Source: a phage
Length of the DNA stretch: 64,000 bases
Reading direction: 5' to 3' (one strand)
Sequence record: PZ445435.1
In this document: in pieces, positions 10,667-44,953 of the stretch
Position numbering within the stretch: the stretch's first letter is position 1
Layout: the number at the start of each line of letters is the position of its first letter
The notes under the pieces: generated by a model
Told to the model about the DNA's origin: nothing
The model's database searches: none
The model's input: the letters and a program-made list of their open reading frames with translations, nothing else
Made by a program: the position numbers and the translations under genes

Positions 10667-11845
10667 TTAAAAATATTTTTTAAAACTCATCATAACTTTA
10701 TCATCAACATCATTATCAATCTGTGCAACAAGATAAGATGACAGTTCTACTTCTTGTGGCGCGGATTGAACATTATCAGAATTAAGATATTCACGAATCC
10801 AAGGATATGGGTGTTTAACCGGAGCATCGGTAATTGGGCATGGAAGACCACACTGTTTCATACGAGATACAGTTAAGTAATCAATAAAGCTCCACATGTT
10901 ATTTGTATTTAATCCAGGAACATCGCCATCTTTAAATAAATGAACTGCCCAATCTTTTTCTTGGCGGTTAACTTCCATGAAAATATCAACTGCTTCTTGT
11001 TCACACTCTTGAGCAATTTTAACCCATTCATCGCCATCAGTGCCAAGTTGAAGTTGACGAATAATATATTGAGTGCCTTTAAGGTGAAGCTGTTCATCAC
11101 GTGCAATGAACTTCATAATCTTTGCATTGCCTTCCATAATTTCCATGTTCTTATGGAAGTTAAAGGTACATGCGAAAGATACATAAAAACGAATAGCTTC
11201 CAATGCGTTGATTACATGCAAACAGAGGTAAAGAGATTTCATTAGCTCACGCTTCCAATATGTCTCATGCTCAATAGCATCTTCAATAACATCTTCGTCT
11301 GCATTAATTTCTTTTTGGTATTCGATATCAGCTTTAGCGTTTTCCCAATAACGAGTTTTAGTCAGAACATCATCATAATAACGTCCAATGGATTCAGCAC
11401 GTTTCATAATAGCTTCATCTAATACAATCTCATCAAATACCTTTGACGGATCAGTATAAAGATTTCGCATGATATGTGTATATGAACGAGAGTGAATAGT
11501 TTCACTAAAAGTCCACGTAGCAACCCATGTATCAAGGCTTGGGTCTGAAATTAATGACATAAGTACAGCAGACGGCGCACGACCCTGAATGCTATCCAAA
11601 AGTGATTGATACTTCAGGTTATTAGTAAAAATATTTTGCTGATACTGAGGAAGCTTATTAAACTGTGCAGCATCCATCATTAAGTTTACTTCTTCAGGAC
11701 GCCAAAAAAATGATAAAGATTTCTCAATAAGTTCTTCAAATACTCTATGTCGTTGAATATCATATCGAGCTAAACCCAATCCAGAACCAAAAAACATCGG
11801 CTCAGTCAAAATATTAACAGGGGATGTATTAAAAACTGTACTCAT
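10667..11845 (-). CDS. nrdB: ribonucleotide reductase small subunit (intronless)
   Basis: 392 aa, di-iron/tyrosyl radical R2 family, contiguous ORF. Confidence 0.9.
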   Translation of the reverse strand: MSTVFNTSPVNILTEPMFFGSGLGLARYDIQRHRVFEELIEKSLSFFWRPEEVNLMMDAAQFNKLPQYQQNIFTNNLKYQSLLDSIQGRAPSAVLMSLISDPSLDTWVATWTFSETIHSRSYTHIMRNLYTDPSKVFDEIVLDEAIMKRAESIGRYYDDVLTKTRYWENAKADIEYQKEINADEDVIEDAIEHETYWKRELMKSLYLCLHVINALEAIRFYVSFACTFNFHKNMEIMEGNAKIMKFIARDEQLHLKGTQYIIRQLQLGTDGDEWVKIAQECEQEAVDIFMEVNRQEKDWAVHLFKDGDVPGLNTNNMWSFIDYLTVSRMKQCGLPCPITDAPVKHPYPWIREYLNSDNVQSAPQEVELSSYLVAQIDNDVDDKVMMSFKKYF

Positions 11846-15064: not shown

Positions 15065-15281
15065 ATTGTTTTTCCGTTAAAACAGTAATATCGTAGTAAC
15101 AGTCAGAAGAAGTTTTAACTGTGGAAATTTTATTGTCAAAATACTCACGAGTCATTTTATGAGTATAGTATTTTTTACCATAAATGGTAATAGGCTGTTC
15201 TGGTCCTGGAACTTCTAACTCGCTTGGATTAGGAAGTGTAAAAAGAACGACACCAGAAGTATCTTTAAATCGTAAAATCAT
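15018..15281 (-). CDS. hypothetical protein (87 aa)
   Basis: ORF track; 47-nt overlap with downstream ORF. Confidence 0.4.
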
Positions 15282-16138
15282 ATTGCCATTTTCCCTTTAA
15301 TTGCTGGATGCGATTCATAATTTTCAAGGATAAAATCTTTCGGTTTCATGTATTCAGTTAACCAGTAAAGCTGTGTTTCGGTGTCACAATTTTCAAACTC
15401 TATAGGCCAATCAATTTTAAGTTCGCACAGTTCTTTAGGCTCACGACGTAAAATTTCTTTACATTGTTCTACATGATTCATATAGATATGAGTATTACCA
15501 CCAGAAAATATCAAATCTCCTGGGATAAGATTACACATCTTAGCCATAATATGCGTCAAGGCAGCGTACGAGGCAATGTTGAATGGCAAGCCCAAGAAAA
15601 CATCTACACTTCTTTGGTACCACTGTAAATCAAGATAACCATTACGCACATTAAACTGATAGAACATATGACAGGGTGGTAATGCCATTTGATTGATTTC
15701 AGCTGGATTCCATGCTGAAACGATTTGACGTCGATCAGTTGGTAATTTTTTAATACGATCAATAGTTTCAACTAATTGATCCACACCACCGAAATCACGC
15801 CATTGTTTACCATATATAGGACCCAGTTCACCACTATGATATCCTAGGTCTTTAGCTTGGTTTTCATAATTGTCATCCCAGATAGTTTTACCTTGAATAA
15901 GACTACCGTGAGTAAGAAGACGTAAATCATTAACATTGGTAGAACCGGAAATAAACCATAAAAGCTCAGCAATGCATGCATTCCAGGCGAGCTTCTTAGT
16001 TGTTACTGCAGGAAAACCTTTACTTAAATCCCAGCGTAATTTAGTACCGAACAAAGCAATTGTTCCTGTGCCCGTTCGGTCATCGGTTTCATAGCCATTT
16101 TCAAAAATGTCTTTAATTAAATCTTGGTATTGTTTCAT
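15278..16138 (-). CDS. td: thymidylate synthase (intronless)
   Basis: 286 aa contiguous; matches recalled T4 TS. Confidence 0.95.
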
Positions 16139-22070: not shown

Positions 22071-22078
22071 TATAAATA
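22071..22078 (+). promoter_or_regulatory. late promoter TATAAATA for gene 34
   Basis: Exact consensus about 35 nt upstream of gene 34 ATG. Confidence 0.7.
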
Positions 22079-22112: not shown

Positions 22113-25100
22113 ATGGCCGAGATTAAAAGAAAGTTCAGAGCAGAAGACGGTCTGGACGCAGGTGGCGATAAAATAATCAACGTAGCTTTAGCTGATCGTA
22201 CCGTAGGAACTGACGGTGTTAACGTTGATTACTTAATTCAAGAAAACACAGTTCAACAATATGATCCAACTCGTGGATATTTAAAAGATTTTGTAATCAT
22301 TTATGATAACCGCTTTTGGGCTGCTATAAATGATATTCCAAAACCGGCAGGAGCTTTTAATAGCGGGCGCTGGAGAGCATTACGTACAGACGCAAACTGG
22401 ATTACGGTTTCATCTGGTTCATATCAATTAAAATCCGGTGAAGCTATTTCGGTTAATACTGCAACTGGAAATGACATCACGTTTACTTTACCATCTTCTC
22501 CAATTGATGGAGATACTATCGTTCTCCAAGATATTGGAGGAAAACCTGGAGTTAACCAAGTTTTAATTGTAGCTCCAGTGCAAAGTATTGTAAACTTTAG
22601 AGGTGAACAGGTACGTTCAGTACTAATGACTCATCCAAAGTCACAGCTAGTTTTAATTTTTAGTAATCGTCTGTGGCAAATGTATGTAGCTGATTATAGT
22701 AGAGAAGCTGTAGTTGTAACACCAGCGAATACTTATCAAGCGCAATCTAATGATTTTATCGTGCGTAGATTTACTTCTGCTGCACCAATTAATGTCAAAC
22801 TTCCAAGATTTGCTAATCATGGCGATATTATTAATTTCGTTGATTTAGATAAACTGAATCCACTTTATCATACAATTGTTACTACATACGATGAAACGAC
22901 TTCAGTACAAGAAGTTGGAACTCATTCCATTGAAGGCCGTACATCGATTGACGGTTTCTTGATGTTTGATGATAATGAGAAATTGTGGAGATTGTTTGAC
23001 GGGGATAGTAAAGCACGTTTACGCATTATAACGACTAATTCTAATATTCGTCCAAACGAAGAAGTTATGGTATTTGGTGCGAATAACGGAACAACCCAAA
23101 CAATTGAGCTTCAGCTTCCTACTGATATTTCTGTTGGTGATACTGTTAAAATTTCCATGAATTACATGAGAAAAGGACAAACAGTTAAAATCAAAGCTGC
23201 CGGTGAAGATAAAATTGCTTCTTCAGTTCAATTGCTGCAATTCCCAAAACGCTCAGAATATCCGCCTGAAGCTGAATGGGTTACAGTCCAAGAATTAGTT
23301 TTTAATGGTGAAACTAATTATGTTCCAGTTTTACAGCTCGCTTATATTGAAGATTCTGATGGAAAATACTGGGTTGTACAGCAAAATGTTCCAACTGTAG
23401 AAAGAGTAGATTCTTTAAATGATTCTACTAGAGCAAGATTAGGCGTAATTGCTTTAGCTACACAAGCTCAAGCTAATGTCGATTTAGAAAATTCTCCACA
23501 AAAAGAATTAGCAATTACTCCAGAAACGTTAGCTAATCGTACTGCTACAGAAACTCGCAGAGGTATTGCAAGAATAGCAACTACCGCTCAAGTAAATCAG
23601 AACACCACATTCTCTTTTGCAGATGACCTTATCATTACTCCTAAAAAGCTGAATGAAAGAACTGCTACAGAAACTCGTAGAGGTGTTGCTGAAATTGCTA
23701 CGCAGCAAGAAACTAATACAGGTACTGATGATACTACAATCATCACTCCTAAAAAGCTTCAAGCTCGCCAAGGTTCTGAATCATTATCTGGTATTGTAAC
23801 TTTTGTATCTACTGCAGGTGCTACTCCAGCTTCTAGTCGTGAATTAAATGGTACGAATGTTTATAATAAAAACACTAATAATTTAGTTGTTTCACCTAAA
23901 GCTTTGGATCAGTATAAAGCTACTCCAACACAGCAAGGTGCAGTAATTTTAGCAGTTGAAAGTGAAGTAATTGCTGGACAAAGTCAGGAAGGATGGGCAA
24001 ATGCTGTTGTAACGCCAGAAACGTTACATAAAAAGACATCAACTGATGGAAGAATTGGTTTAATTGAAATTGCTACACAAAGTGAAGTTAATACAGGAAC
24101 TGATTATACTCGTGCAGTCACTCCTAAAACTTTAAATGACCGTAGAGCAACTGAAAGTTTAAGTGGTATAGCTGAAATTGCTACACAAGTTGAATTCGAC
24201 GCAGGCGTCGACGATACTCGTATCTCTACACCATTAAAAATTAAAACTAGATTTAATAGTACTGATCGTACTTCTGTTGTTGCTCTATCTGGATTAGTTG
24301 AATCAGGAACTCTCTGGGACCATTATACCCTTAATATTCTTGAAGCAAATGAGACACAGCGTGGTACACTTCGTGTAGCTACACAGGTTGAAGCTGCTGC
24401 AGGAACATTAGATAATGTTTTAATAACTCCTAAAAAGCTTTTAGGTACTAAATCTACCGAATCGCAAGAAGGTGTTATTAAAGTTGCAACTCAGTCTGAA
24501 ACTGTGACTGGAACATCAGCAAATACTGCTGTATCTCCAAAAAATTTAAAATGGATTGTGCAGAGTGAACCTACCTGGGCAGCTACTACTGCGATAAGAG
24601 GTTTTGTTAAAACTTCATCTGGTTCAATTACATTCGTTGGTAATGATACAGTCGGTTCTACCCAAGATTTAGAACTGTATGAGAAAAATAGCTATGCGGT
24701 ATCACCATATGAATTAAACCGTGTATTAGCAAATTATTTGCCGTTAAAAGCAAAAGCTGTAGATAGTAATTTATTGGATGGTCTAGATTCATCTCAGTTC
24801 ATTCGTAGGGACATTGCGCAGACAGTTAATGGTTCACTAACCTTAACCCAACAAACGAATCTGAGTGCCCCTCTTGTATCATCTAGTACTGCTGCGTTTG
24901 GTGGTTCAGTTTCGGCAAATAGTACATTAACTATTTCTAATACTGGAACGGCAACTCGTCTGATTTTTGAGAAAGGACCTCAAACTGGAACTAACCCAGC
25001 GCAGACGATGACTATCAGAGTTTGGGGAAATCAGTTTGGTGGTGGATCAGATACAACACGTTCTACTGTATTTGAAGTTGGTGATGAAACATCTAATCAC

Positions 25101-25982
25101 TTTTATTCTCAACGTAATAAAGCTGGTAATATTACGTTTAGCATTAATGGTACTGTGATGCCAATAAATGTTAACGCTTCCGGTTCATTGAATGCGAATG
25201 GCGTAGCAACATTTGGTAGTTCAGTTACAGCCAATGGTGAATTCATTAGCAAGTCTGCAAATGCTTTCAGAGCAATAAACGGTGATTATGGATTCTTTAT
25301 CAGGAATGATGGCGGCAGTACATATTTTATGCTTACTGCATCTGGTGATCAGACCGGTGGATTTAATGGATTACGTCCATTATCAATTAATAATCAATCC
25401 GGTCAAGTCACAATTGGTGAAAGCTTAATCATTGCCAAAGGTGCTACTATAAATTCAGGCGGTTTAACTGTTAACTCGAGAATTCGTTCTCAGGGTACTA
25501 AAACATCTGATTTATATACCCGTGCGCCAACATCTGATACGGTAGGATTCTGGTCAATTGATATTAACGATTCAGCCACTTATAACCAATTCCCGGGTTA
25601 TTTTAAAATGGTTGAAAAAACTAATGAAGTGACTGGGCTTCCATACTTAGAACGTGGAGAAGAAGTTAAATCTCCTGGTACACTGACTCAGTTTGGTAAT
25701 ACACTTGATTCACTTTACCAAGATTGGATTACTTATCCAACGACGTCAGACGCGCGTACCACTCGCTGGACACGTACATGGCAGAAAACCAAAAACTCTT
25801 GGTCAAGTTTTGTTCAGGTATTTGATGGAGGTAACCCTCCTCAACCATCTGATATCGGTGCTTTACCATCTGATAATGCCACAATGGGTAATCTTACTAT
25901 TCGTGATTTCTTACGAATTGGTAATGTTCGCATTATTCCTGACCCAGTGAATAAAACGGTTAAATTTGAATGGGTTGAATAA
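22113..25982 (+). CDS. 34: long tail fibre proximal subunit gp34
   Basis: 1289 aa; internal phage-fibre repeats; N-terminus matches T4 gp34. Confidence 0.95.
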   Translation: MAEIKRKFRAEDGLDAGGDKIINVALADRTVGTDGVNVDYLIQENTVQQYDPTRGYLKDFVIIYDNRFWAAINDIPKPAGAFNSGRWRALRTDANWITVSSGSYQLKSGEAISVNTATGNDITFTLPSSPIDGDTIVLQDIGGKPGVNQVLIVAPVQSIVNFRGEQVRSVLMTHPKSQLVLIFSNRLWQMYVADYSREAVVVTPANTYQAQSNDFIVRRFTSAAPINVKLPRFANHGDIINFVDLDKLNPLYHTIVTTYDETTSVQEVGTHSIEGRTSIDGFLMFDDNEKLWRLFDGDSKARLRIITTNSNIRPNEEVMVFGANNGTTQTIELQLPTDISVGDTVKISMNYMRKGQTVKIKAAGEDKIASSVQLLQFPKRSEYPPEAEWVTVQELVFNGETNYVPVLQLAYIEDSDGKYWVVQQNVPTVERVDSLNDSTRARLGVIALATQAQANVDLENSPQKELAITPETLANRTATETRRGIARIATTAQVNQNTTFSFADDLIITPKKLNERTATETRRGVAEIATQQETNTGTDDTTIITPKKLQARQGSESLSGIVTFVSTAGATPASSRELNGTNVYNKNTNNLVVSPKALDQYKATPTQQGAVILAVESEVIAGQSQEGWANAVVTPETLHKKTSTDGRIGLIEIATQSEVNTGTDYTRAVTPKTLNDRRATESLSGIAEIATQVEFDAGVDDTRISTPLKIKTRFNSTDRTSVVALSGLVESGTLWDHYTLNILEANETQRGTLRVATQVEAAAGTLDNVLITPKKLLGTKSTESQEGVIKVATQSETVTGTSANTAVSPKNLKWIVQSEPTWAATTAIRGFVKTSSGSITFVGNDTVGSTQDLELYEKNSYAVSPYELNRVLANYLPLKAKAVDSNLLDGLDSSQFIRRDIAQTVNGSLTLTQQTNLSAPLVSSSTAAFGGSVSANSTLTISNTGTATRLIFEKGPQTGTNPAQTMTIRVWGNQFGGGSDTTRSTVFEVGDETSNHFYSQRNKAGNITFSINGTVMPINVNASGSLNANGVATFGSSVTANGEFISKSANAFRAINGDYGFFIRNDGGSTYFMLTASGDQTGGFNGLRPLSINNQSGQVTIGESLIIAKGATINSGGLTVNSRIRSQGTKTSDLYTRAPTSDTVGFWSIDINDSATYNQFPGYFKMVEKTNEVTGLPYLERGEEVKSPGTLTQFGNTLDSLYQDWITYPTTSDARTTRWTRTWQKTKNSWSSFVQVFDGGNPPQPSDIGALPSDNATMGNLTIRDFLRIGNVRIIPDPVNKTVKFEWVE

Positions 25983-25990
25983 GAGGTATT

Positions 25991-27106
25991 ATGGAAAAAT
26001 TTATGGCAGAGTTTGGACAAGGATATGTCCAAACGCCATTTTTATCGGAAAGTAATTCAGTAAGATACAAAATAAGTATAGCGGGTTCTTGCCCGCTTTC
26101 TACAGCAGGACCATACGTTAAATTTCAGGATAATCCTGTAGGAAGTCAAACATTTAGCGCAGGTCTTCATTTAAGAGTTTTTGACCCTTCCACCGGAGCA
26201 TTAGTTGATAGTAAGTCATATGCTTTTTCGACTTCAAATGATACTACATCAGCTGCTTTTGTTAGTTTCATGAATTCTTTGACGAATAATCGAATTGTCG
26301 CTATATTAACTAGTGGAAAGGTTAATTTTCCTCCTGAAGTAGTATCTTGGTTAAGAACCGCCGGAACGTCTGCTTTTCCATCTGATTCTATATTGTCAAG
26401 ATTCGACGTATCATATGCTGCTTTTTATACTTCTTCTAAAAGAGCTATTGCATTAGAGCATGTTAAATTAAGTAATAGAAAAAGCACAGATGATTATCAA
26501 ACTATTTTAGATGTTGTATTTGACAGTTTAGAAGACGTCGGAGCTACCGGGTTTCCAAGAAGAACGTATGAAAGCGTTGAGCAATTCATGTCAGCGGTTG
26601 GTGGAACTAATAACGAAATTGCGCGTCTACCAACTTCAGCTACTATAAGTAAATTATCTGATTATAATTTAATTCCTGGCGATGTTCTTTATCTTAAAGC
26701 TCAGTTATATGCTGATGCCGATTTACTTGCTCTTGGAACTACAAATATATCTATCCGTTTTTATAATGCATCAAATGGATATATTTCCTCGACACAAGCT
26801 GAATTTACCGGACAAGCTGGGTCATGGGAATTAAAGGAAGATTATGTAGTTGTTCCAGAAAACGCTGTAGGATTTACGATATATGCACAAAGAACTGCTA
26901 AAGCTGGCCAAGGTGGCATGAGAAATTTAAGCTTTTCTGAAGTATCAAGAAACGGTGGTATTTCAAAACCTGCTGAATTTGGCGTCAACGGTATTCGTGT
27001 TAATTATATCTGTGAATCCGCTTCACCTCCGGATATAATGGTACTTCCTACGCAAGCATCATCTAAAACTGGTAAAGTGTTTGGGCAAGAATTTAGAGAA
27101 GTATAA
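25991..27106 (+). CDS. 35: long tail fibre hinge protein gp35
   Basis: 371 aa; matches recalled T4 gp35. Confidence 0.9.
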   Translation: MEKFMAEFGQGYVQTPFLSESNSVRYKISIAGSCPLSTAGPYVKFQDNPVGSQTFSAGLHLRVFDPSTGALVDSKSYAFSTSNDTTSAAFVSFMNSLTNNRIVAILTSGKVNFPPEVVSWLRTAGTSAFPSDSILSRFDVSYAAFYTSSKRAIALEHVKLSNRKSTDDYQTILDVVFDSLEDVGATGFPRRTYESVEQFMSAVGGTNNEIARLPTSATISKLSDYNLIPGDVLYLKAQLYADADLLALGTTNISIRFYNASNGYISSTQAEFTGQAGSWELKEDYVVVPENAVGFTIYAQRTAKAGQGGMRNLSFSEVSRNGGISKPAEFGVNGIRVNYICESASPPDIMVLPTQASSKTGKVFGQEFREV

Positions 27107-27108
27107 AT

Positions 27109-27137
27109 TGAGGGAGCCTTCGGGTTCCCTTTTTCTT
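27109..27137 (+). terminator. rho-independent terminator after gene 35
   Basis: AGGGAGCC-UUCG-GGUUCCCU hairpin followed by UUUUCUUU. Confidence 0.6.
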
Positions 27138-27145
27138 TATAAATA
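27138..27145 (+). promoter_or_regulatory. late promoter TATAAATA for genes 36-37
   Basis: Exact consensus 24 nt upstream of gene 36 ATG. Confidence 0.7.
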
Positions 27146-27168
27146 CTATTAAAATAAAGGGGCATACA

Positions 27169-27834
27169 ATGGCTGATTTAAAAGTAGGTTCAACAACCGG
27201 AGGCTCTGTCATTTGGCATCAAGGAAATTTTCCATTGAATCCAGCCGGTGACGATGTACTCTATAAATCATTTAAAATATATTCAGAATATAATAAACCA
27301 CAAGCTGCTGATAACGATTTCGTTTCTAAAGCTAATGGTGGTACTTATGCATCAAAGGTAACATTTAACGGTGGAATTCAAGTTCCGTATGCTGTAAACA
27401 ACACAAACCCATGCGGTGTTTATCCAGGTAACGGTGATAATGCTACTTTTGCTGTAGCAAATATCGATATTGTTTCGTGGAATGGTATTGGTTTTAAATC
27501 ATCACAAGGTTCAGCAGCTCGAACTGTTGTAATTAATGCACGTAATGGTGATATTAGTACAAAAGGCGTTGTGTCGGCAGCAGGTCAAGTAAGAAGTGAT
27601 GCGGCTGCTCCTATAGCAGCGAATGACCTTACTAGAAAGGACTATGTTGATGGAGCAATAAATACTGTTACGGCAAATGCAAACTCTAGGGTGCTACGGT
27701 CTGGTGACACCATGATAGGTAATTTAACAGCGCCAAACTTTTTCTCGCAGAATCCTGCATCTCAACCTTCACACGTTCCACGATTTGACCAAATCGTAAT
27801 TAAGGATTCTGTTCAAGATTTCGGCTATTATTAA
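27169..27834 (+). CDS. 36: long tail fibre distal connector gp36
   Basis: 221 aa; synteny and size. Confidence 0.9.
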
Positions 27835-27842
27835 GAGGACTT

Positions 27843-30800
27843 ATGGCTACTTTAAAACAAATACAATTTAAAAGAAGCAAAACCGCAGGTGCACGTCCTG
27901 CTGCTTCAGTATTAGCCGAAGGTGAATTGGCTATAAACTTAAAAGATAGAACAATTTTTACTAAAGATGATTCAGGAAATATCATCGATTTAAGCATTTC
28001 TACTGGCGGTAATATCAGTGGTAATATCACTCAAACTGGTGATTATACACAGACTGGAAAATTTAATTTAATTGGTCCGCAAATTGTAGCAAGCGGTGGA
28101 TATATTGAGTTTAATTATCGTACTACTGGAAGTGGGGCTTGGTCCGGTCAACATACTGCGAAAGCTCCAATTTTTGTAGATTTAAGCTCAGCTACTTCCA
28201 CATCTGAATATAATCCTATAATTAAACAGCGCTTTAAAGATGGAACTTTTTCATTAGGTACTTTAGTTTCTGAAGGTTCGTTGAAGATTCATTATATCAA
28301 TGAATCTGGCGATTCGAAATATTGGACGTTTCGACGTGACGGCGGATTTACTGTTGACGGTGGAGGTTTAGCAGTATCAGGAGGTAGTATAACTACATCT
28401 GGAAATATTGCAGCTATTGGAAATATTACTTCGCCTCAGATTAATACTAAAAATATTATTTTAGATACAAAAGCATTTGGACAATACGATTCGCAATCAT
28501 TAGTTCAATATGTTTATCCTGGAACAGGCGAAGAAAATGGTATAAACTATCTTCGTAAAGTTCGAGCTAAATCAGGCGGTACAATTTATCATGAATTAGC
28601 TTCTGCGCAAACCGGAAAAAGTGATGAACTTTCTTGGTGGACTGGTAATACAGCCGTTAATAAACAAATGGGTCTTCGTAATGATGGGGCTTTAGTATTA
28701 CGACGCTCACTCGCAATTGGTACAATTACAACAGATGAAAACATTAATAACTACGGCTCCGCTGGAGCAATGGGCGAATGTTATATAGTTATCGGTGATG
28801 CATCAACAGGCTTATCATACAAAAAAACTGGAGTATATGATTTAGTTGCTAGTGGTCTTTCTTTAGCATCTATTACTCCTGATAGTTTCCGTAGTACCCG
28901 TAAAGCGATTTTTGGTCGTTCCGAGGACCAAGGTACAACATGGATTATGCCTGGAACCAACGCCGCGTTTTTATCGGTTCAAACACAAGCTGATGAAAAC
29001 ACTGCTGGAGACGGCCAGACGCATATTGGCTATAACTCAGGCGGAAAAATGAACCACTATTTCCGTGGTAAAGGCAAAACTAATATTAATACTCAAGAAG
29101 GCATGGAAGTTAACCCGGGTATTTTGAAATTGGTAACTGGCTCTAATAATGTAATGTTTTATGCTGATGGCGGTATTACATCTGTTAAGCAGCTTTCAAT
29201 ATATAATGGCATATATTTAGCAGCTAATAATTCTACTGCTGGGCTAACATTCGCTCCAACTACTACAATTGATGGCACTAAGCAAATTTTGTGGGAAGGC
29301 GGTACTCGTGCTGGTCAGAATAAAAGCTATGTAACTGTTAAAGCATGGGGTAATTCATTTAACGCATCTGGCGATCGTAATCGTGAAACGGTTTTTGAAG
29401 TAGCTGATGGACAAGGATATTATTTTTATTCACAGCGTGTGGCTCCAAGTGGCTCTGAAACTACTGGGCCTGTTGTAACCCAGTTCAATGGACAAGTTAA
29501 TGCTAGAGGAAGTATTATTACTGACGGAAGTTTTAAAGTTAATGGATTAAGCACTTTAGTCGGTAATGTTACCATGTCTAATGGTTTGTTTGTCCAAGGT
29601 GGTTCTTCTATTACTGGACAAGTAAAAATTGGTGGAACTGCTGATGCATTAAGAATTTGGAATGCCGAATACGGTGCTATTTTCCGTCGCTCAGAAACAG
29701 CATTACATATTATCCCGACTCCTAAAGATGCCGGTGAAAGTGGTGGAATAAGTAATCTCCGCCCACTTAGTATTAGTCTTAATAATGGTATGGTACAAAT
29801 GCGCCATTCTGTTACGTTAGGCGATGATGGCGCTGGCGGTAATATGATTACTGTGGACAACGATACCAAACTTGTTGTTGTTACTAGTAATAGTCGCATT
29901 TCTCCTAATTACCGTATGCAGGTAGGACAAGCAGCTTATATTGATGCTGAATGTACTGACACAGTTCGCCCGGCTGGTGCAGGGTCTTTTGCTTCACAAA
30001 ATAATGAAAACGTTCGTGCTCCATTCTATATGAATATTAATCGTACAGATACAAGTACTTACGTTCCTATTTTGAAACAACGATATGTCCAAGGAAACAG
30101 TTGTTATTCTCTGGGAACTCTAATTAACGGCGGTAACTTCAGAGTTCATTATCATGAAGGCGGCGATGGCGGTTCGACTGGCGCTATTATAAAGGATTTA
30201 GGTTGGGAATTTAACAAAAATGGTGATTTTATATCTCCTAAGCGTGTTTCTGCTGGTGGTTCAGTTTATTTAGGTACAGACGGCAATATTACAGGTGGTT
30301 CTGGCAATTTTGCTAATTTAAACAGTACAATTGAATCACTTAAAACCGATATTGTATCGAGTTACCCAATCGGTGCTCCTATTCCATGGCCAACGGATAC
30401 TCCTCCTGACGGTTACGCTATTATGGAAGGCCAGACTTTTGATAAGTCTGCATACCCAAAATTGGCTATGGCTTACCCATCTGGCGTAATTCCAGATATG
30501 CGCGGGCAAACTATTAAAGGTAAACCAAGTGGTCGAGCTGTATTAAGCGCAGAAGCCGATGGTGTTAAGGCTCATAGCCATAGTGCATCGGCTTCAAGTA
30601 CTGACTTGGGTACTAAAACTACGTCGAGTTTTGATTATGGTACTAAGACGACAAGTAGCTTTAACTATGGCACTAAGACTAGCAATACCACAGGTAACCA
30701 CTCTCATACTGTAAGCGGTACTACGAGTTCTGCTGGTGCACACCAACATGCGCGCTCAGGTCCTCAGATACAAGCCGGCATACCCAATAACATATTCTAT

Positions 30801-31118
30801 GACGGATATAATAGTGTAGGTGCAAACGCCAACGCTAAATTCACTGGAACCGTGAACGGTGCTACTGCAGGGTCGAATATAGCCAAAACTTCTTCAGACG
30901 GTGCTCATACTCATACTTGGTCTGGTACTACAAGCACTACAGGTAACCATGCTCACACAGTAGGTATTGGTGCTCATACCCATACTGTAGGTATCGGTGC
31001 TCATACCCACACGGTAGCAATTGGCTCGCATGGTCATACTATCACTGTAAATAGTACAGGTAATACAGAAAACACGGTTAAAAACATTGCTTTTAACTAT
31101 ATCGTTCGTTTAGCATAA
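27843..31118 (+). CDS. 37: long tail fibre distal subunit gp37 (receptor-binding tip with HxH needle)
   Basis: 1091 aa; N- and C-termini match T4 gp37, central region divergent. Confidence 0.95.
30609..30689 (+). repeat. 30-bp tandem repeat (about 2.7 copies) encoding GTKTTSSF(D/N)Y within gene 37
   Basis: Direct inspection of adjacent near-identical 30-mers. Confidence 0.7.
30954..31034 (+). repeat. 27-bp tandem repeat x3 encoding HTVGIGAHT His-box (metal-binding HxH) in gene 37
   Basis: Three consecutive 27-mers. Confidence 0.7.
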
Positions 31119-31122
31119 GGAG

Positions 31123-31138
31123 AGGGGCTTCGGCCCCT
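31123..31138 (+). promoter_or_regulatory. stem-loop (AGGGGC-UUCG-GCCCCU) sequestering the gene 38 RBS region
   Basis: Perfect stem between gene 37 stop and gene 38 ATG, no U-tract. Confidence 0.45.
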
Positions 31139-31145
31139 TCTAAAT

Positions 31146-31697
31146 ATGAAAATATATCATTATTATTTTGACACTAAAGAATTTTACAAAGAAGAAAATT
31201 ACAAACCGGTTAAAGGCCTCGGTCTTCCTGCTCATTCAACAATTAAAAAACCTTTAGAACCTAAAGAAGGATATGCAGTTGTATTTGATGAACGTACTCA
31301 GGATTGGATTTATGAAGAAGACCATCGCGGAAAACGAGCATGGACTTTTAATAAAGAAGAAATTTTTATAAGTGAAATTGGAAGCCCGGTTGGTATAACT
31401 TTTGATGAGCCTGGCGAATTTGATATATGGACTGATGACGGTTGGAAAGAAGACGAAACATATAAGCGAGTTTTAATTCGTAATAGAAAAATTGAAGAAT
31501 TATATAAAGAGTTCCAAGTTTTAAATAATATGATTGAAGCTTCTGTCGCCAATAAAAAGGAAAAATTTTATTATAAAAACCTTAAGCGGTTCTTTGCTCT
31601 TTTAGAAAAGCATGAGCATTTAGGTGGTGAATTCCCTTCATGGCCTGAAAAAGAACGGAAACCTTGGTATAAGCGTTTATTCAAGCATTACGTATAA
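31146..31697 (+). CDS. 38: tail fibre assembly chaperone gp38 (T4-type)
   Basis: 183 aa; matches recalled T4 gp38. Confidence 0.9.
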   Translation: MKIYHYYFDTKEFYKEENYKPVKGLGLPAHSTIKKPLEPKEGYAVVFDERTQDWIYEEDHRGKRAWTFNKEEIFISEIGSPVGITFDEPGEFDIWTDDGWKEDETYKRVLIRNRKIEELYKEFQVLNNMIEASVANKKEKFYYKNLKRFFALLEKHEHLGGEFPSWPEKERKPWYKRLFKHYV

Positions 31698-31700
31698 ATA
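31693..31700 (+). promoter_or_regulatory. late promoter TATAAATA for gene t
   Basis: Exact consensus overlapping gene 38 stop. Confidence 0.65.
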
Positions 31701-31717
31701 TCTTAAAAGGAGGGTCT

Positions 31718-32374
31718 ATGGCAGCACCTAGAATATCATTTTCGCCCTCTGATATTCTGTTTGGTGTTCTAGATCGCTTGTTCAAAGATAACGCTACTGG
31801 GAAGGTTCTTGCTTCCCGGGTAGCTGTCGTAATTCTTTTATTTATGATGGCGATTGTTTGGTATAGGGGAGATAGTTTCTTTGAGTACTATAAGCAATCA
31901 AAGTATGAAACATACCGTGAAATTGTTGAAAAGGAAAGAACTGCACGCTTTGAATCTGTCGCCCTGGAACAACTCCAGATAGTACATATATCATCTGAGG
32001 CAGACTTTAGTGCGGTGTATTCTTTCCGCCCTAAAAACTTAAACTATTTTGTTGATATTATAGCATACGAAGGAAGATTACCTTCAACAATAACTGAAAA
32101 ATCACTTGGAGGATATCCTGTTGATAAAACTATGGATGAATATATAGTTCATTTAAATGGACGTCATTATTATTCTGACTCAAAATTTGCTTTTTTACCA
32201 ACTAAAAAGCCTACTCCCGAAATAAACTACATGTATAGTTGTCCATATTTTAATTTGGATAATATCTATGCTGGAACAATAACAATGTACTGGTATAGAA
32301 ATGATCATATAAGTAATGACCGCCTTGAATCAATATGTGCTCAGGCGGCCAGAATATTAGGAAGGGCTAAATAA
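31718..32374 (+). CDS. t: holin T
   Basis: 218 aa, single N-terminal TM segment and large periplasmic domain. Confidence 0.9.
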   Translation: MAAPRISFSPSDILFGVLDRLFKDNATGKVLASRVAVVILLFMMAIVWYRGDSFFEYYKQSKYETYREIVEKERTARFESVALEQLQIVHISSEADFSAVYSFRPKNLNYFVDIIAYEGRLPSTITEKSLGGYPVDKTMDEYIVHLNGRHYYSDSKFAFLPTKKPTPEINYMYSCPYFNLDNIYAGTITMYWYRNDHISNDRLESICAQAARILGRAK

Positions 32375-43053: not shown

Positions 43054-43083
43054 ATTATACCACATCCTTGTGGTAAAGTAAAC
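43054..43083 (-). promoter_or_regulatory. T4-type early promoter (palindrome CCACATCCTTGTGG in spacer)
   Basis: GTTTAC ... GTATAAT on minus strand. Confidence 0.5.
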
Positions 43084-44900
43084 TACTGGCTCATCCATTC
43101 TTTACGAAGGTCAGCATTATCTCCCATGAGCATTTCAAAAAGCTCTTTCCAGTTCTCAGGAAGTTTAACAACATCATATACTGGGTTTTGAATCATCTCA
43201 CGATATTCAGATTTTTCCAAAGAGCCAAGTCCCTTAATATAACGGATGCTATGTTTAGGTAGAGCATCTTTGGCACTCTCATATTCAGCGACTGTATAAA
43301 ACCATTCTTGTTTTTTACCGACCTGAGCGATGATTACAGGAGTTTTGACGAAGCGAATTCTTCCTTGTTCAAACAGTTCTGGCCAATTACTAAAAAATCC
43401 GAGCAGAGAAGGATAAATGCTTCCTAGACCATCGTGGTCAGCATCGGTCATAATAGCAATATTATGATAATTCAAGTTTTCAGCTTTTTCACCAAGAACT
43501 AATCCAGTGATTGCGCAAATATCAAATAGTTCTTTGTTTTTAAGCATATCAGCATATGACATACCCCAACTGTTGAGAACTTTACCACGCAATGGATAAC
43601 CACCATGAAGTTCTTTATCACGAACATCAATAAGATATCCGATAGCAGAATCACCCTCAGTCAAGAAAAGAGTAGTATCAGCATCTTTACCGCACAGATT
43701 AGCTTTAATATGTTTATGAACCTTTGCCTTAGAAGCCTTTTTAGCTGCTTTAGTTTCAGCTGCTTTTTCTGCTGCCAATTTACGAGCTAGTGCAGCTTCA
43801 ATAATTGGCATTAAAATTGCTTCATTATTTAAAATAGCGCGTGAAATCTTTTTAGCGTCAAGTTGAATATGACTACGGATTTCACCAAATGGAGAAGTCA
43901 AACGCTCTTTAGTTTGAGAATCAAATCGCATGTTTTTCATATCACGAAGAAACATAACGATAGTCAAACATTCTTTAACACGTGCTTTAGTTACATCAAT
44001 TTTGAATTTACGTTTGATTTGTGGAATAAGGTCTTCACAAATATCATCCATAACGCAGTCAATGTGATGGCCACCATTCTTAGTGTGAATGTTATTCACA
44101 TAAGTTAATTGACGAAAACCATCCGGTGAACGACCAACCGCAATAGAACAATTTTCTTGTTCTTGAACAATAGCATGTTCATCATACTGTCGTGCATATT
44201 TCTTAAAATTGCCCTGAACCTTTTTACCATTAAAGGTAAATTGAATATCAGGATAAACTACTGCAAGTGTCTGGAGACGATCCAGTGTAATGTCAAGATA
44301 AACTTGGGACAGCTCATTAGTTTCAAATGACATAAAATCTGGAATGAAAGTAACACGAGTTCCTTTCCATTTTCCAGGAATAGTTTCCCAGGATTTATTT
44401 TCCATGCCATTTGAACAACGAACTACAATATTATTTTGACCATCGCCAGTTTCACCGACAAACATCACAGAAAAAATGTTAGTTAAACTAGAACCAACAC
44501 CATTCATACCACCGGTGACACGTTCTTTATCATCACCAAAGTTACCACCCGCTTTTGGAATAGTCCAAGCAGCAACTGGACCAGGAATTTCTTCACCGGT
44601 AGGTGTTTTAACCATCGCTTGTGGAATACCACGACCGTTATCTTCAACTGTTACTTGATTGTTTTTGATAGTAACATTAATTTTATTTGCGAATTTAAAC
44701 TTAGTACGAATACCTTCATCTACTGAGTTATCGATAATTTCATCAATAAGCTTAACAAGACCAGGTACATACTGAACACTTTCCCATTTACCAAACAGAA
44801 AGCGCTCATGCATTTCATTAGCAGAAGAGCCAATATACATGCCGCTACGCTTTTTGATATGTTCAATATCGCTCAGAATTTTAATTTCATTCTTAATCAT
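43083..44900 (-). CDS. 39: DNA topoisomerase II large subunit gp39, uninterrupted (T4 39 and 60 equivalents fused)
   Basis: 605 aa continuous ORF; C-terminal 90 aa correspond to what T4 encodes separately in gene 60. Confidence 0.9.
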   Translation of the reverse strand: MIKNEIKILSDIEHIKKRSGMYIGSSANEMHERFLFGKWESVQYVPGLVKLIDEIIDNSVDEGIRTKFKFANKINVTIKNNQVTVEDNGRGIPQAMVKTPTGEEIPGPVAAWTIPKAGGNFGDDKERVTGGMNGVGSSLTNIFSVMFVGETGDGQNNIVVRCSNGMENKSWETIPGKWKGTRVTFIPDFMSFETNELSQVYLDITLDRLQTLAVVYPDIQFTFNGKKVQGNFKKYARQYDEHAIVQEQENCSIAVGRSPDGFRQLTYVNNIHTKNGGHHIDCVMDDICEDLIPQIKRKFKIDVTKARVKECLTIVMFLRDMKNMRFDSQTKERLTSPFGEIRSHIQLDAKKISRAILNNEAILMPIIEAALARKLAAEKAAETKAAKKASKAKVHKHIKANLCGKDADTTLFLTEGDSAIGYLIDVRDKELHGGYPLRGKVLNSWGMSYADMLKNKELFDICAITGLVLGEKAENLNYHNIAIMTDADHDGLGSIYPSLLGFFSNWPELFEQGRIRFVKTPVIIAQVGKKQEWFYTVAEYESAKDALPKHSIRYIKGLGSLEKSEYREMIQNPVYDVVKLPENWKELFEMLMGDNADLRKEWMSQ

Positions 44901-44953
44901 CACTTATCCTCGTTTGGTTTCGGGAATATTATACTCCGGTAATCATAAAGCTA

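Follow-up and report, generated by a model that had tools for sequence, protein, structure and literature searches.

Gene 37 and its neighbours

The locus considered here lies in a stretch of phage DNA of 64,000 nucleotides (sequence record PZ445435.1), referred to below as the window, in which the long tail fibre genes follow the order 34-35-36-37-38-t known from T4, with open reading frames of 1289, 371, 221, 1091, 183 and 218 aa and sizes as in T4. Over 100% of its length the DNA of gene 37 is 99.4-99.9% identical to 13 GenBank records from 11 phages, Bas41 included, which are annotated as the long tail fibre distal subunit; roughly 720 gp37 genes were matched in the same search. The T4 gp37 tip (PDB 2xgf_A) is matched by gp37 aa 814-1091 (phmmer, E = 2.1e-95), the Pfam Collar domain is found at aa 844-891 (E = 2.2e-11), and eight HxH motifs occur downstream of the collar. 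Gene 37 is an ordinary and already known T4-like gene for the outer half of the long tail fibre, in a patchwork allele. An earlier note on this DNA had the gene begin at 28000, which is 157 nt inside it, the actual start being at 27843; the lengths given there, 1091 aa for the product and 1026 aa for T4 gp37, were both right, and the reading frame ends at 31118.

Table 1. Gene 37 of the window, its parts and its nearest neighbours
Feature	Positions	Strand	Remarks
T4 late-promoter consensus match TATAAATA	27138..27145	+	24 nt upstream of gene 36
gp36, distal hinge connector joining gp37 to the proximal half fibre	27169..27834	+	221 aa; Pfam Phage_T4_gp36, E = 1.4e-42
Gene 37, long tail fibre distal subunit with built-in adhesin	27843..31118	+	1091 aa
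Conserved N-terminus	27843..27992	+	aa 1-50; 48/50 identical to T4, 50/50 to T2
T2-type proximal shaft segment	27993..28622	+	aa 51-260; 96-98% aa identity to T2 gp37
Patchwork shaft	28623..30302	+	aa 261-820; block-wise switching identity to T4, T2, JK36, LH01, JS09
Third-source segment in the shaft	29688-29927	+	aa 616-695; carries an 11-aa insertion
Collar domain and needle base with the first HxH (aa 911-913)	30303..30605	+	aa 821-921; 92% identical to T4
Ascending-strand repeat, 27 aa	30609..30689	+	2.5 units of 30 bp (10 aa); 1.5 units in T4
Ascending His boxes 2 and 3 (NHSHT, AHQHA)	30699..30749	+	14 aa apart, spacing as in T4
Head (receptor-binding) domain	30750..30905	+	aa 970-1021; 52 aa between flanking His boxes, 34 in T4
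Five descending-strand His boxes	30906..31037	+	spacings 14, 9, 9, 9 aa; T4 has four, spacings 14, 9, 9
27-bp His-box tandem repeat, H-x-H-T-V-G/A-I-G-A/S	30948..31028	+	three units; TRF
Conserved C-terminal end and stop codon	31038..31118	+	aa 1050-1091; 42/42 identical to T4
gp38, T4-type chaperone for gp37 assembly, not adhesin	31146..31697	+	183 aa

The gp36 protein is 91.4% identical to that of T4, and its informative sites side with T4 in 98 cases and with T2 in 18. Judging from what is known of T4, the TATAAATA motif ahead of gene 36 is likely the start of the 36-37-38 late transcript; the same motif precedes gene 34 (at 22071) and gene t (at 31693), and its count within the window does not exceed chance. 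Neither Rfam nor tRNA scans of the window gave a hit. An antisense open reading frame of 157 aa within gene 37 (29426-29899) was discounted as a side effect of the coding strand, and a 9-bp repeat at 28400-28427, to which TRF gives a score of 35, seemed too weak for interpretation.

The product of gene 38 is identical to the T4 protein at 181 of 183 residues, to that of TuIb at 182 and to that of Bas41 at all 183, and it has no similarity to the 262-aa gp38 adhesin of T2 (E = 81). Since gp38 is thus a chaperone of the T4 type, it would be logical to place the adhesin in the gp37 tip itself, an argument of the earlier note which these comparisons support, and the neighbouring gp38 would then act solely as a folding chaperone.

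Mosaic structure of gene 37

Overall gp37 is 67.8% identical to its T4 counterpart, with a very uneven distribution; uniform identity to T4, which would speak against any divergent part, is clearly absent. At the nucleotide level, identity to T4 is at least 95% up to about 27970, 31-60% over 27971-28450, patchy to 30600 and 31-62% over 30670-30990, after which it is 100% through gp38 and t (from 31031 onward the DNA is 100% identical). T4-like DNA therefore ends at about 27970 and returns at about 30990, and this right-hand junction lies inside the 27-bp His-box repeat.

In its first part the gene resembles T2. The identity of aa 1-260 to T2 gp37 is 96-100%, nucleotide identity to T2 is 96-100% over 27791-28510, the N-proximal 780 nt of the gene being T2-type, and 249 informative sites of this segment group the window with T2, as against 4 with T4. 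The breakpoint analysis recommended in the earlier note was carried out by the maximum chi-square method and gave a recombination breakpoint at 27774-27883 (Fisher p = 2e-65). The N-terminus, described earlier as T4-like, is so for aa 1-50 (96%), which probably form the end joining gp36, but not for aa 51-205, where identity to T4 is 27%. Further along the shaft, in the third-source segment (29689-29928), there are 96 sites at which T4 and T2 agree with each other but not with the window, and aa 466-686 show a resemblance to the gp34 structures 5nxf and 4uxe.

The C-terminal needle, which had also been equated with that of T4, agrees with it at aa 821-921 (92%) and aa 1050-1091 (100%) but not at aa 922-1049 between them (49%, with 37 gap columns). 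It is also here that most of the additional length is found: the 65 residues by which gp37 exceeds T4 gp37 are distributed as 16 in aa 1-230, 10 near aa 652, 37 in aa 901-1091 and 2 elsewhere, so that 37 of 65 fall in the last 190 aa and not, as was thought, in the middle of the protein.

Judged by these alignments, gene 37 is a recombinational mosaic whose nearest relative changes abruptly, as had been proposed, and its product is laid out as a T2-type part (aa 1-260), a patchwork shaft and a receptor domain of the TuIb type. The simpler picture of T4 termini around a divergent middle fits the T4-identical DNA at both ends of the gene, but these ends are about 130 nt each, and the shaft, being moderately similar to T4 (54-80%), is not the most divergent part. 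A stronger version, in which a T4 gp37 had its middle replaced by foreign DNA, with the repeats as part of the import and with the receptor switched, may also draw on the strongly uneven identity inside the gene and on the mosaicism, which is genuine. We regard it as unlikely and as largely refuted already by the sequence comparisons, because the N-proximal segment is of the T2 type, the repeats, which T4 also has, sit in the C-terminal needle, and OmpC, the protein receptor of T4 itself, is used by phages with the same tip.

Tandem repeats and the proposed rungs of the needle

Both tandem repeats exist at the sites where they were first noticed, one from 30609 and the other as 27-bp units at 30948-31028, and both exceed chance. 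Units of the former begin in frame at nt 30609, 30639 and 30669 (the third reads GTKTS...), and the first two differ at 8 of 30 nucleotides and at 1 of 10 residues; at the DNA level this repeat was missed by TRF with a minimum score of 30. As its DNA copies have diverged and the repeat is one of protein, residue shuffling was used instead: in 2000 shuffles of either the whole gp37 sequence or the C-terminal 200 aa the maximum tandem identity was 7 residues, as compared with 9/10 and 9/9 in the actual repeats. For the His-box repeat, TRF reports 30954-31017, with a period of 27, 2.4 copies, 86% matches and a score of 100, and the units are 70-81% identical to one another.

The two repeats occupy aa 923-949 and 1036-1062 of 1091, that is, they are located within the C-terminal needle, and T4 carries both of them, each one unit shorter, which disagrees with the earlier view of them as marks of a divergent central region. 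At the equivalent site the GenBank records of teqhad and teqdroes have an annotated repeat_region. In the sequences compared, the repeats are conserved units from which the needle is built, and T4, TuIa, TuIb, Mosigvirus phages and E. coli prophage fibres all have them.

Laboratory mutants of T4 with duplicated His-box segments and a broadened host range were reportedly described by Tetart et al. in 1996, and one may ask if the present repeats are also recent, unstable, contingency-like His-box expansions that broaden the host range, the more so as unequal crossing-over could make use of a 14-nt exact match, GGTGCTCATACCCA, whose copies are 27 nt apart. We find this the least likely of the alternatives weighed here, since the divergence between units of both repeats, at the values given above, is mostly synonymous, TuIa and TuIb (records of 1990), Mosigvirus phages and many prophage fibres have the same copy number, this number is constant among the near-identical alleles examined, and ascending and descending copy numbers are strictly coupled. 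An 18-nt length difference in teqdroes, for which repeat instability was considered as a cause, is actually due to the deletion of aa 559-564 (6 aa), which lie outside the repeats.

The coupling emerges from 123 homologous tips, which were classed by explicit spacing patterns and, as related sequences, are non-independent; they fall into 18 head clusters, and in two of these clusters both needle lengths are seen. An ascending spacing of 32 aa from HxH1 to HxH2 is accompanied by two descending spacings of 9 aa in 65 tips, and a spacing of 42 aa by three such spacings in the remaining 58, with no discordant case. The 14-aa His-box units are present on the ascending and descending strands as 1/1 in 89 tips, 0/0 in 33 and 2/2 in one.

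We propose that the tandem repeats are rungs, in which the 10-aa ascending unit would be partnered by a 9-aa descending His-box unit, VGIGAHTHT; having one rung more than T4, the needle would accordingly offer 8 HxH metal sites, as against 7 in T4. The pairing is suggested by covariation among related sequences together with descriptions of 2XGF taken second-hand from PMC9659904, PMC11705849, PMC5221442 and PMC3157838. According to PMC9659904 and PMC11705849, the T4 needle is six-stranded and antiparallel and contains seven iron ions. It is in our opinion probable that the needle consists of paired modules (10-aa with 9-aa, and 14-aa on both strands) and that the repeats first noticed together make up one extra rung, each being half of it. 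If this is true, needle length and the number of metal sites (7, 8 or more) would be a character that evolves in discrete steps and through coupled insertions only. The strict coupling may be taken as a design rule for chimeric gp37 tips, with rungs added or taken out in pairs and heads swapped at His boxes.

Receptor domain and comparison with known fibres

Homology to 2XGF suggests that gp37 is a homotrimer whose HxH boxes coordinate Fe2+. The distal half of every long tail fibre would consist of three such 1091-aa chains, and the chain would ascend the needle, build the head at the extreme tip and then descend. This putative head (aa 970-1021), 18 aa larger than that of T4, would be the part that contacts the outer-membrane porin OmpC, and the conserved rungs and His boxes probably double as recombination junctions, allowing the exchange of heads between phages. 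The T4 host-range residues 938-955 fall in the head domain, according to PMC5221442.

Residues 961-1040 of gp37 are 100% identical to those of Bas41, JK36, teqhad and KMB22, and Bas41 and JK36 were shown to select ompC mutants by RB-TnSeq in K-12 and O157:H7 (bioRxiv 10.64898/2026.07.23.740414). From this published genetics of phages with an identical tip, OmpC can be predicted as the primary receptor, and the tip may have an additional, T4-like LPS-dependent mode. The host-range switching read earlier from the mosaic is not borne out as far as the receptor protein is concerned, as no change from T4 is indicated when Bas41 and JK36 depend on OmpC like T4 itself. OmpC would be common to T4 and the present allele despite heads which are 20-38% identical, and head sequence is therefore a poor predictor of receptor across types.

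We have also considered that the tip binds another primary receptor, for example OmpF, LamB or LPS alone. Close architectural relatives do differ in this respect, TuIa using OmpF and TuIb being listed as an OmpC(/LamB) phage (PMC9659904), and, of the four residues that differ from TuIb (N941D, F1000I, T1003S and N1005S), the last three are in the head. At these three positions, however, the window is the same as the OmpC-dependent Bas41 and JK36, and the sole private change, D941N, is in a needle rung outside the head, so that we hold such a receptor to be very unlikely.

From our analysis, we would give a probability of about 85% to the reading that the locus is gene 37 of a Tequatrovirus, in a mosaic allele with a receptor domain of the TuIb type, a head that contacts OmpC, a chaperone gp38 and paired needle rungs. 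The discovery value is little, as the allele is already in GenBank repeatedly, the sequence of its receptor domain dates from 1990, and the receptor type has been genetically mapped in phages with the same tip. The fibre can be annotated with confidence as a member of the TuIb/Bas41 class of T4-type adhesin-in-fibre, its predicted primary receptor being OmpC, and the gene is a clean example of how a T-even fibre is assembled from T2-type and T4/TuIb-type pieces with conserved junctions.

Among known phages, Bas41 (FriedrichZschokke), Bas44 (AdolfPortmann), teqhad, Ozark and vB-Eco-KMB22 also have a gp37 of 1091 aa, with 99.6-99.9% nucleotide identity and 2-4 residues different from the window. 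Residue 941 is N here and D in every close relative, and the database look-up returned no record of the exact product with N941. For the remaining window, identity to the best database match is lower, at about 96-97%, which means that the same fibre allele stands in a different genomic background.

TuIb (GenBank X55191; Montag, Hashemolhosseini and Henning 1990), compared over the 3' part of gene 37 that is on record, is identical at 263 of 267 C-terminal residues (98.5%), with few nucleotide differences. It shares with the window the features of the TuIa/TuIb long-needle subtype, which are 2.5 ten-aa units, three His-box spacings of 9 aa and a 52-aa head, here starting with ARSGPQ. The HxH spacing pattern, 42,14,55,14,9,9,9, is identical to that of TuIa, JK36, LH01, O157tp3 and JS09. 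T4 gp37 (NP_049863; PDB 2XGF) has in common with the window the locus, the first 50 and last 42 residues, the HxH needle, the chaperone and OmpC, and differs in being 65 aa shorter, with one rung fewer per needle strand (7 HxH against 8) and a 34-aa head.

The gp37 of T2 (AYD82838, 1341 aa) is unrelated from about aa 820, aa 821-1091 being 23-29% identical to it, and T2 has its 262-aa gp38 adhesin where the window has the 183-aa chaperone; the allele thus falls outside the T2/T6 type, only aa 1-260 being T2-like. Finally, the same module of collar, needle and head, with both kinds of rung and the C-terminal end, is found in side tail fibre tips of lambdoid and other prophages from E. coli and Shigella (the lambda Stf family; 2881 proteins matched at E <= 1e-10), which differ in their short and unrelated N-terminal fibre bodies, their siphovirus or prophage contexts and their many other head types.

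Mosaic structure of the fibre cluster

According to the ORF listing, the + strand of the window carries a T-even long-tail-fibre cluster, in which gene 37 encodes gp37, the distal subunit of the long tail fibre. The earlier note, made from the sequence alone, had this gene end correctly at 31118 and begin at 28000, which lies 157 nt inside it. It also took the product to be longer than in T4, and since T4 gp37 has 1026 aa against 1091 aa here, the difference is real. Of the surplus, the 37 residues in the last 190 aa comprise one 10-aa unit, one 9-aa His-box (HxH) unit and 18 aa of the head.

Fibre genes and similarity to T4 along gene 37 (nucleotides of the window; aa, residues of gp37)
Feature	Position	Strand	Product	Comparison with T4
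Gene 34	22113-25982	+	1289 aa	95.7% protein identity
Gene 35	25991-27106	+		98.9% protein identity
Gene 36	27169-27834	+		91.4% protein identity
Gene 37	27843-31118	+	1091 aa	67.8% protein identity, 83 gap columns
Gene 38	31146-31697	+	183 aa	98.9% protein identity
Holin gene t	31718-32374	+		96.8% protein identity
DNA block	up to about 27970			at least 95% DNA identity
DNA block	27971-28450			31-60% DNA identity
DNA block	up to about 30600			42-92% DNA identity, fluctuating
DNA block	30670-30990			31-62% DNA identity
DNA block	from about 31030 through gp38 and t			100% DNA identity
T2-type part	aa 1-230			net +16 residues
Shaft position	near aa 652			net +10 residues
Rest of gp37	elsewhere			net +2 residues
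C-terminal end	last 190 aa			net +37 residues

The T4 late-promoter consensus, TATAAATA, occurs at 27138, just 5' of gene 36, and also upstream of genes 34 and t, its count across the whole window being not above chance; genes 36, 37 and 38 probably share one late transcript. A 157-aa ATG ORF antisense to gene 37 (29426-29899, - strand) is probably a by-product of coding-strand composition.

The N-terminal-side stretch unrelated to T4 has 98.5% DNA identity to T2 gene 37; the protein is 96-100% identical to T2 over aa 1-260 and 27% identical to T4 over aa 51-205. In a three-way count of informative sites (window, T4, T2) gp36 groups with T4 (98 sites vs 18) and nt 27883-28520 of gene 37 with T2 (249 vs 4), the breakpoint lying within the universally conserved interval 27774-27883 (Fisher p = 2e-65). 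Further downstream the nearest relative changes repeatedly: at 29689-29928 there are 96 sites where T4 and T2 agree but the window differs, together with an 11-aa insertion, and identity is also block-wise against JK36, LH01, O157 typing phage 3 and JS09. Gene 36 contains a divergent patch (27341-27610; DNA 80-83% to T4 and 53-67% to T2, flanks 98-100%), so that the hinge connector gp36 is mosaic as well; this patch is 100% identical to phage FriedrichZschokke (Bas41).

Needle repeats and the adhesin tip

The solved T4 tip (PDB 2xgf) aligns with residues 814-1091 (E = 2.1e-95), of which aa 844-891 match the Pfam Collar domain. The 10-aa GTKT units of the ascending needle strand begin at nt 30609, 30639 and 30669, the third reading GTKTSNT..., and the 9-aa His-box units of the descending strand at 30948, 30975 and 31002, the third reading HTHTVAIGS. 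TRF detected the 27-bp array (30954-31017, score 100) and did not report the 30-bp one, whose copies differ at 8 of 30 nt, yet at only one of 10 aa. Tandem residue matches reach 9/10 and 9/9, as against a maximum of 7 in 2000 shuffles, and the repeats are therefore real, as had been claimed; their place, though, is the C-terminal needle (aa 923-949 and 1036-1062), not the centre of gp37. T4 gp37 has the same two repeats, with one unit fewer of each.

Published accounts of the T4 needle describe six antiparallel strands in which HxH pairs hold seven iron ions (PMC9659904, PMC11705849). We tabulated HxH spacings after the collar for 123 homologous tips, the sample being mutually related sequences (120 database proteins, the window, T4, TuIa and four phage alleles). 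On the ascending strand, 65 tips have a first spacing of 32 aa (1.5 GTKT units) and 58 have one of 42 aa (2.5 units); all 65 short forms have two 9-aa spacings on the descending strand and all 58 long forms have three, with no discordant case. The 14-aa His-box units are likewise equal on both strands in 123/123 (1/1 in 89, 0/0 in 33, 2/2 in 1). Clustered at 50% identity, the heads form 18 groups, two of which include both needle lengths. The simplest reading of these related sequences would be that one rung consists of an ascending 10-aa unit with a descending 9-aa unit beside it; on that reading the window would be a long form with 3 + 5 = 8 HxH sites, against 3 + 4 = 7 in T4. A limited literature search found no earlier statement of such strict pairing.

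Codon 941 (30663-30665), in the second rung, is AAC (Asn), the sole private substitution of the window allele; it is GAC (Asp) in TuIb, TuIa, Bas41, AdolfPortmann (Bas44), teqhad, vB-Eco-KMB22, KAW1E185 and JK36. The collar-needle-head module is very common in prophage tail fibres of E. coli, Shigella and Enterobacter (2881 proteins, E <= 1e-10), and several of the 120 database proteins are mislabelled at source as terminase, tape measure protein or fatty acid transporter.

The cassette that diverges from T4 covers nt 30606-30989 (aa 922-1049; 49% identity, 37 gap columns) and is flanked by near-T4-identical DNA, with its edges in the GTKT and the His-box repeat. Published work likewise places exchanges in these adhesin genes at conserved motifs (Tetart et al. 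1996 and 1998, summarised in PMC3157838). The last 267 aa are identical to TuIb gp37 (X55191) at 263 positions, with few nucleotide differences; to TuIa (X55190) identity is 87% over the last 271 aa. Both records (Montag, Hashemolhosseini and Henning 1990, reference given in PMC9659904) already have 2.5 GTKT units, a larger head than T4 and the additional His box.

Receptor and chaperone

Host range in T4 maps to residues 938-955 of the head, between His boxes three and four; OmpC is assigned to the lateral surface of the head and LPS to its top (PMC5221442). The head segment of the window (aa 970-1021) has 52 aa against 34 in T4 and 20-38% identity to it, and aa 961-1040, which contain it, are 100% identical to Bas41 and JK36. 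For both phages ompC is reported as the outer-membrane-protein fitness gene in O157:H7, which is said to agree with BW25113 assignments (2026 preprint, bioRxiv 10.64898/2026.07.23.740414); PMC9659904 lists OmpC(/LamB) for TuIb and OmpF for TuIa. From the head identity and this ompC dependence we predict OmpC as the primary receptor; there is no sign of a changed receptor protein relative to T4.

Window gp38 is identical to that of T4 at 181/183 positions, to TuIb at 182/183 and to Bas41 at 183/183, and has no similarity to the 262-aa T2 gp38 adhesin. In T4, gp38 acts as a chaperone in folding, and the adhesin is supplied by the C-terminus of gp37 (PMC3157838); the suggestion that the gp37 tip is itself the adhesin holds.

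A known allele in a slightly different genome

Two genes elsewhere in the window, those for thymidylate synthase (15278-16138, - strand, 286 aa, full-length Pfam match) and the RNR small subunit (10667-11845, - strand, 392 aa), are uninterrupted ORFs, and an Rfam scan of the window found no group I intron. T4 has introns in td and nrdB, which this phage thus appears to be without. Its topoisomerase II large subunit, split in T4 into gp39 and gp60 (the translational-bypass gene), is one ORF of 606 aa (43083-44903, - strand) with HATPase, GyrB and TOPRIM_C domains, and looks like the unsplit T2/T6-type form.

Thirteen GenBank records (11 phages) match gene 37 along its entire length at 99.4-99.9% DNA identity; among them are vB-Eco-KMB22, Ozark, teqhad, Bas41, Bas44, R5505 and teqdroes. 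The close alleles are 2-4 aa from the window and all carry D941; the exact window product was not on record in the database look-up. Apart from an in-frame loss of 6 aa in the shaft (ITDGSF, aa 559-564; window 29517-29534), the teqdroes allele is about 99.4% identical; evidently the shaft tolerates small indels. Mosigvirus phages, too, have alleles of similar length (1080-1093 aa). For the first 25 kb (1-25000) the best phage records give only about 96-97% identity, and the distal fibre module (from the 3' part of gp35 to gp37; 26351-32374 compared) is 99-100% identical to Bas41; this module looks to be passed horizontally between Tequatrovirus genomes that otherwise differ.

The earlier observation is thus partly confirmed and its interpretation partly supported: length, repeats and chaperone stand; the start and the central placing of the repeats do not, and no change of receptor protein is indicated. 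Gene 37 is a well-known kind of gene, and its allele is a known one in a slightly different genome: it joins a T2-type N-terminal part and a TuIb-type adhesin with a T4-type chaperone, and its predicted receptor is OmpC.
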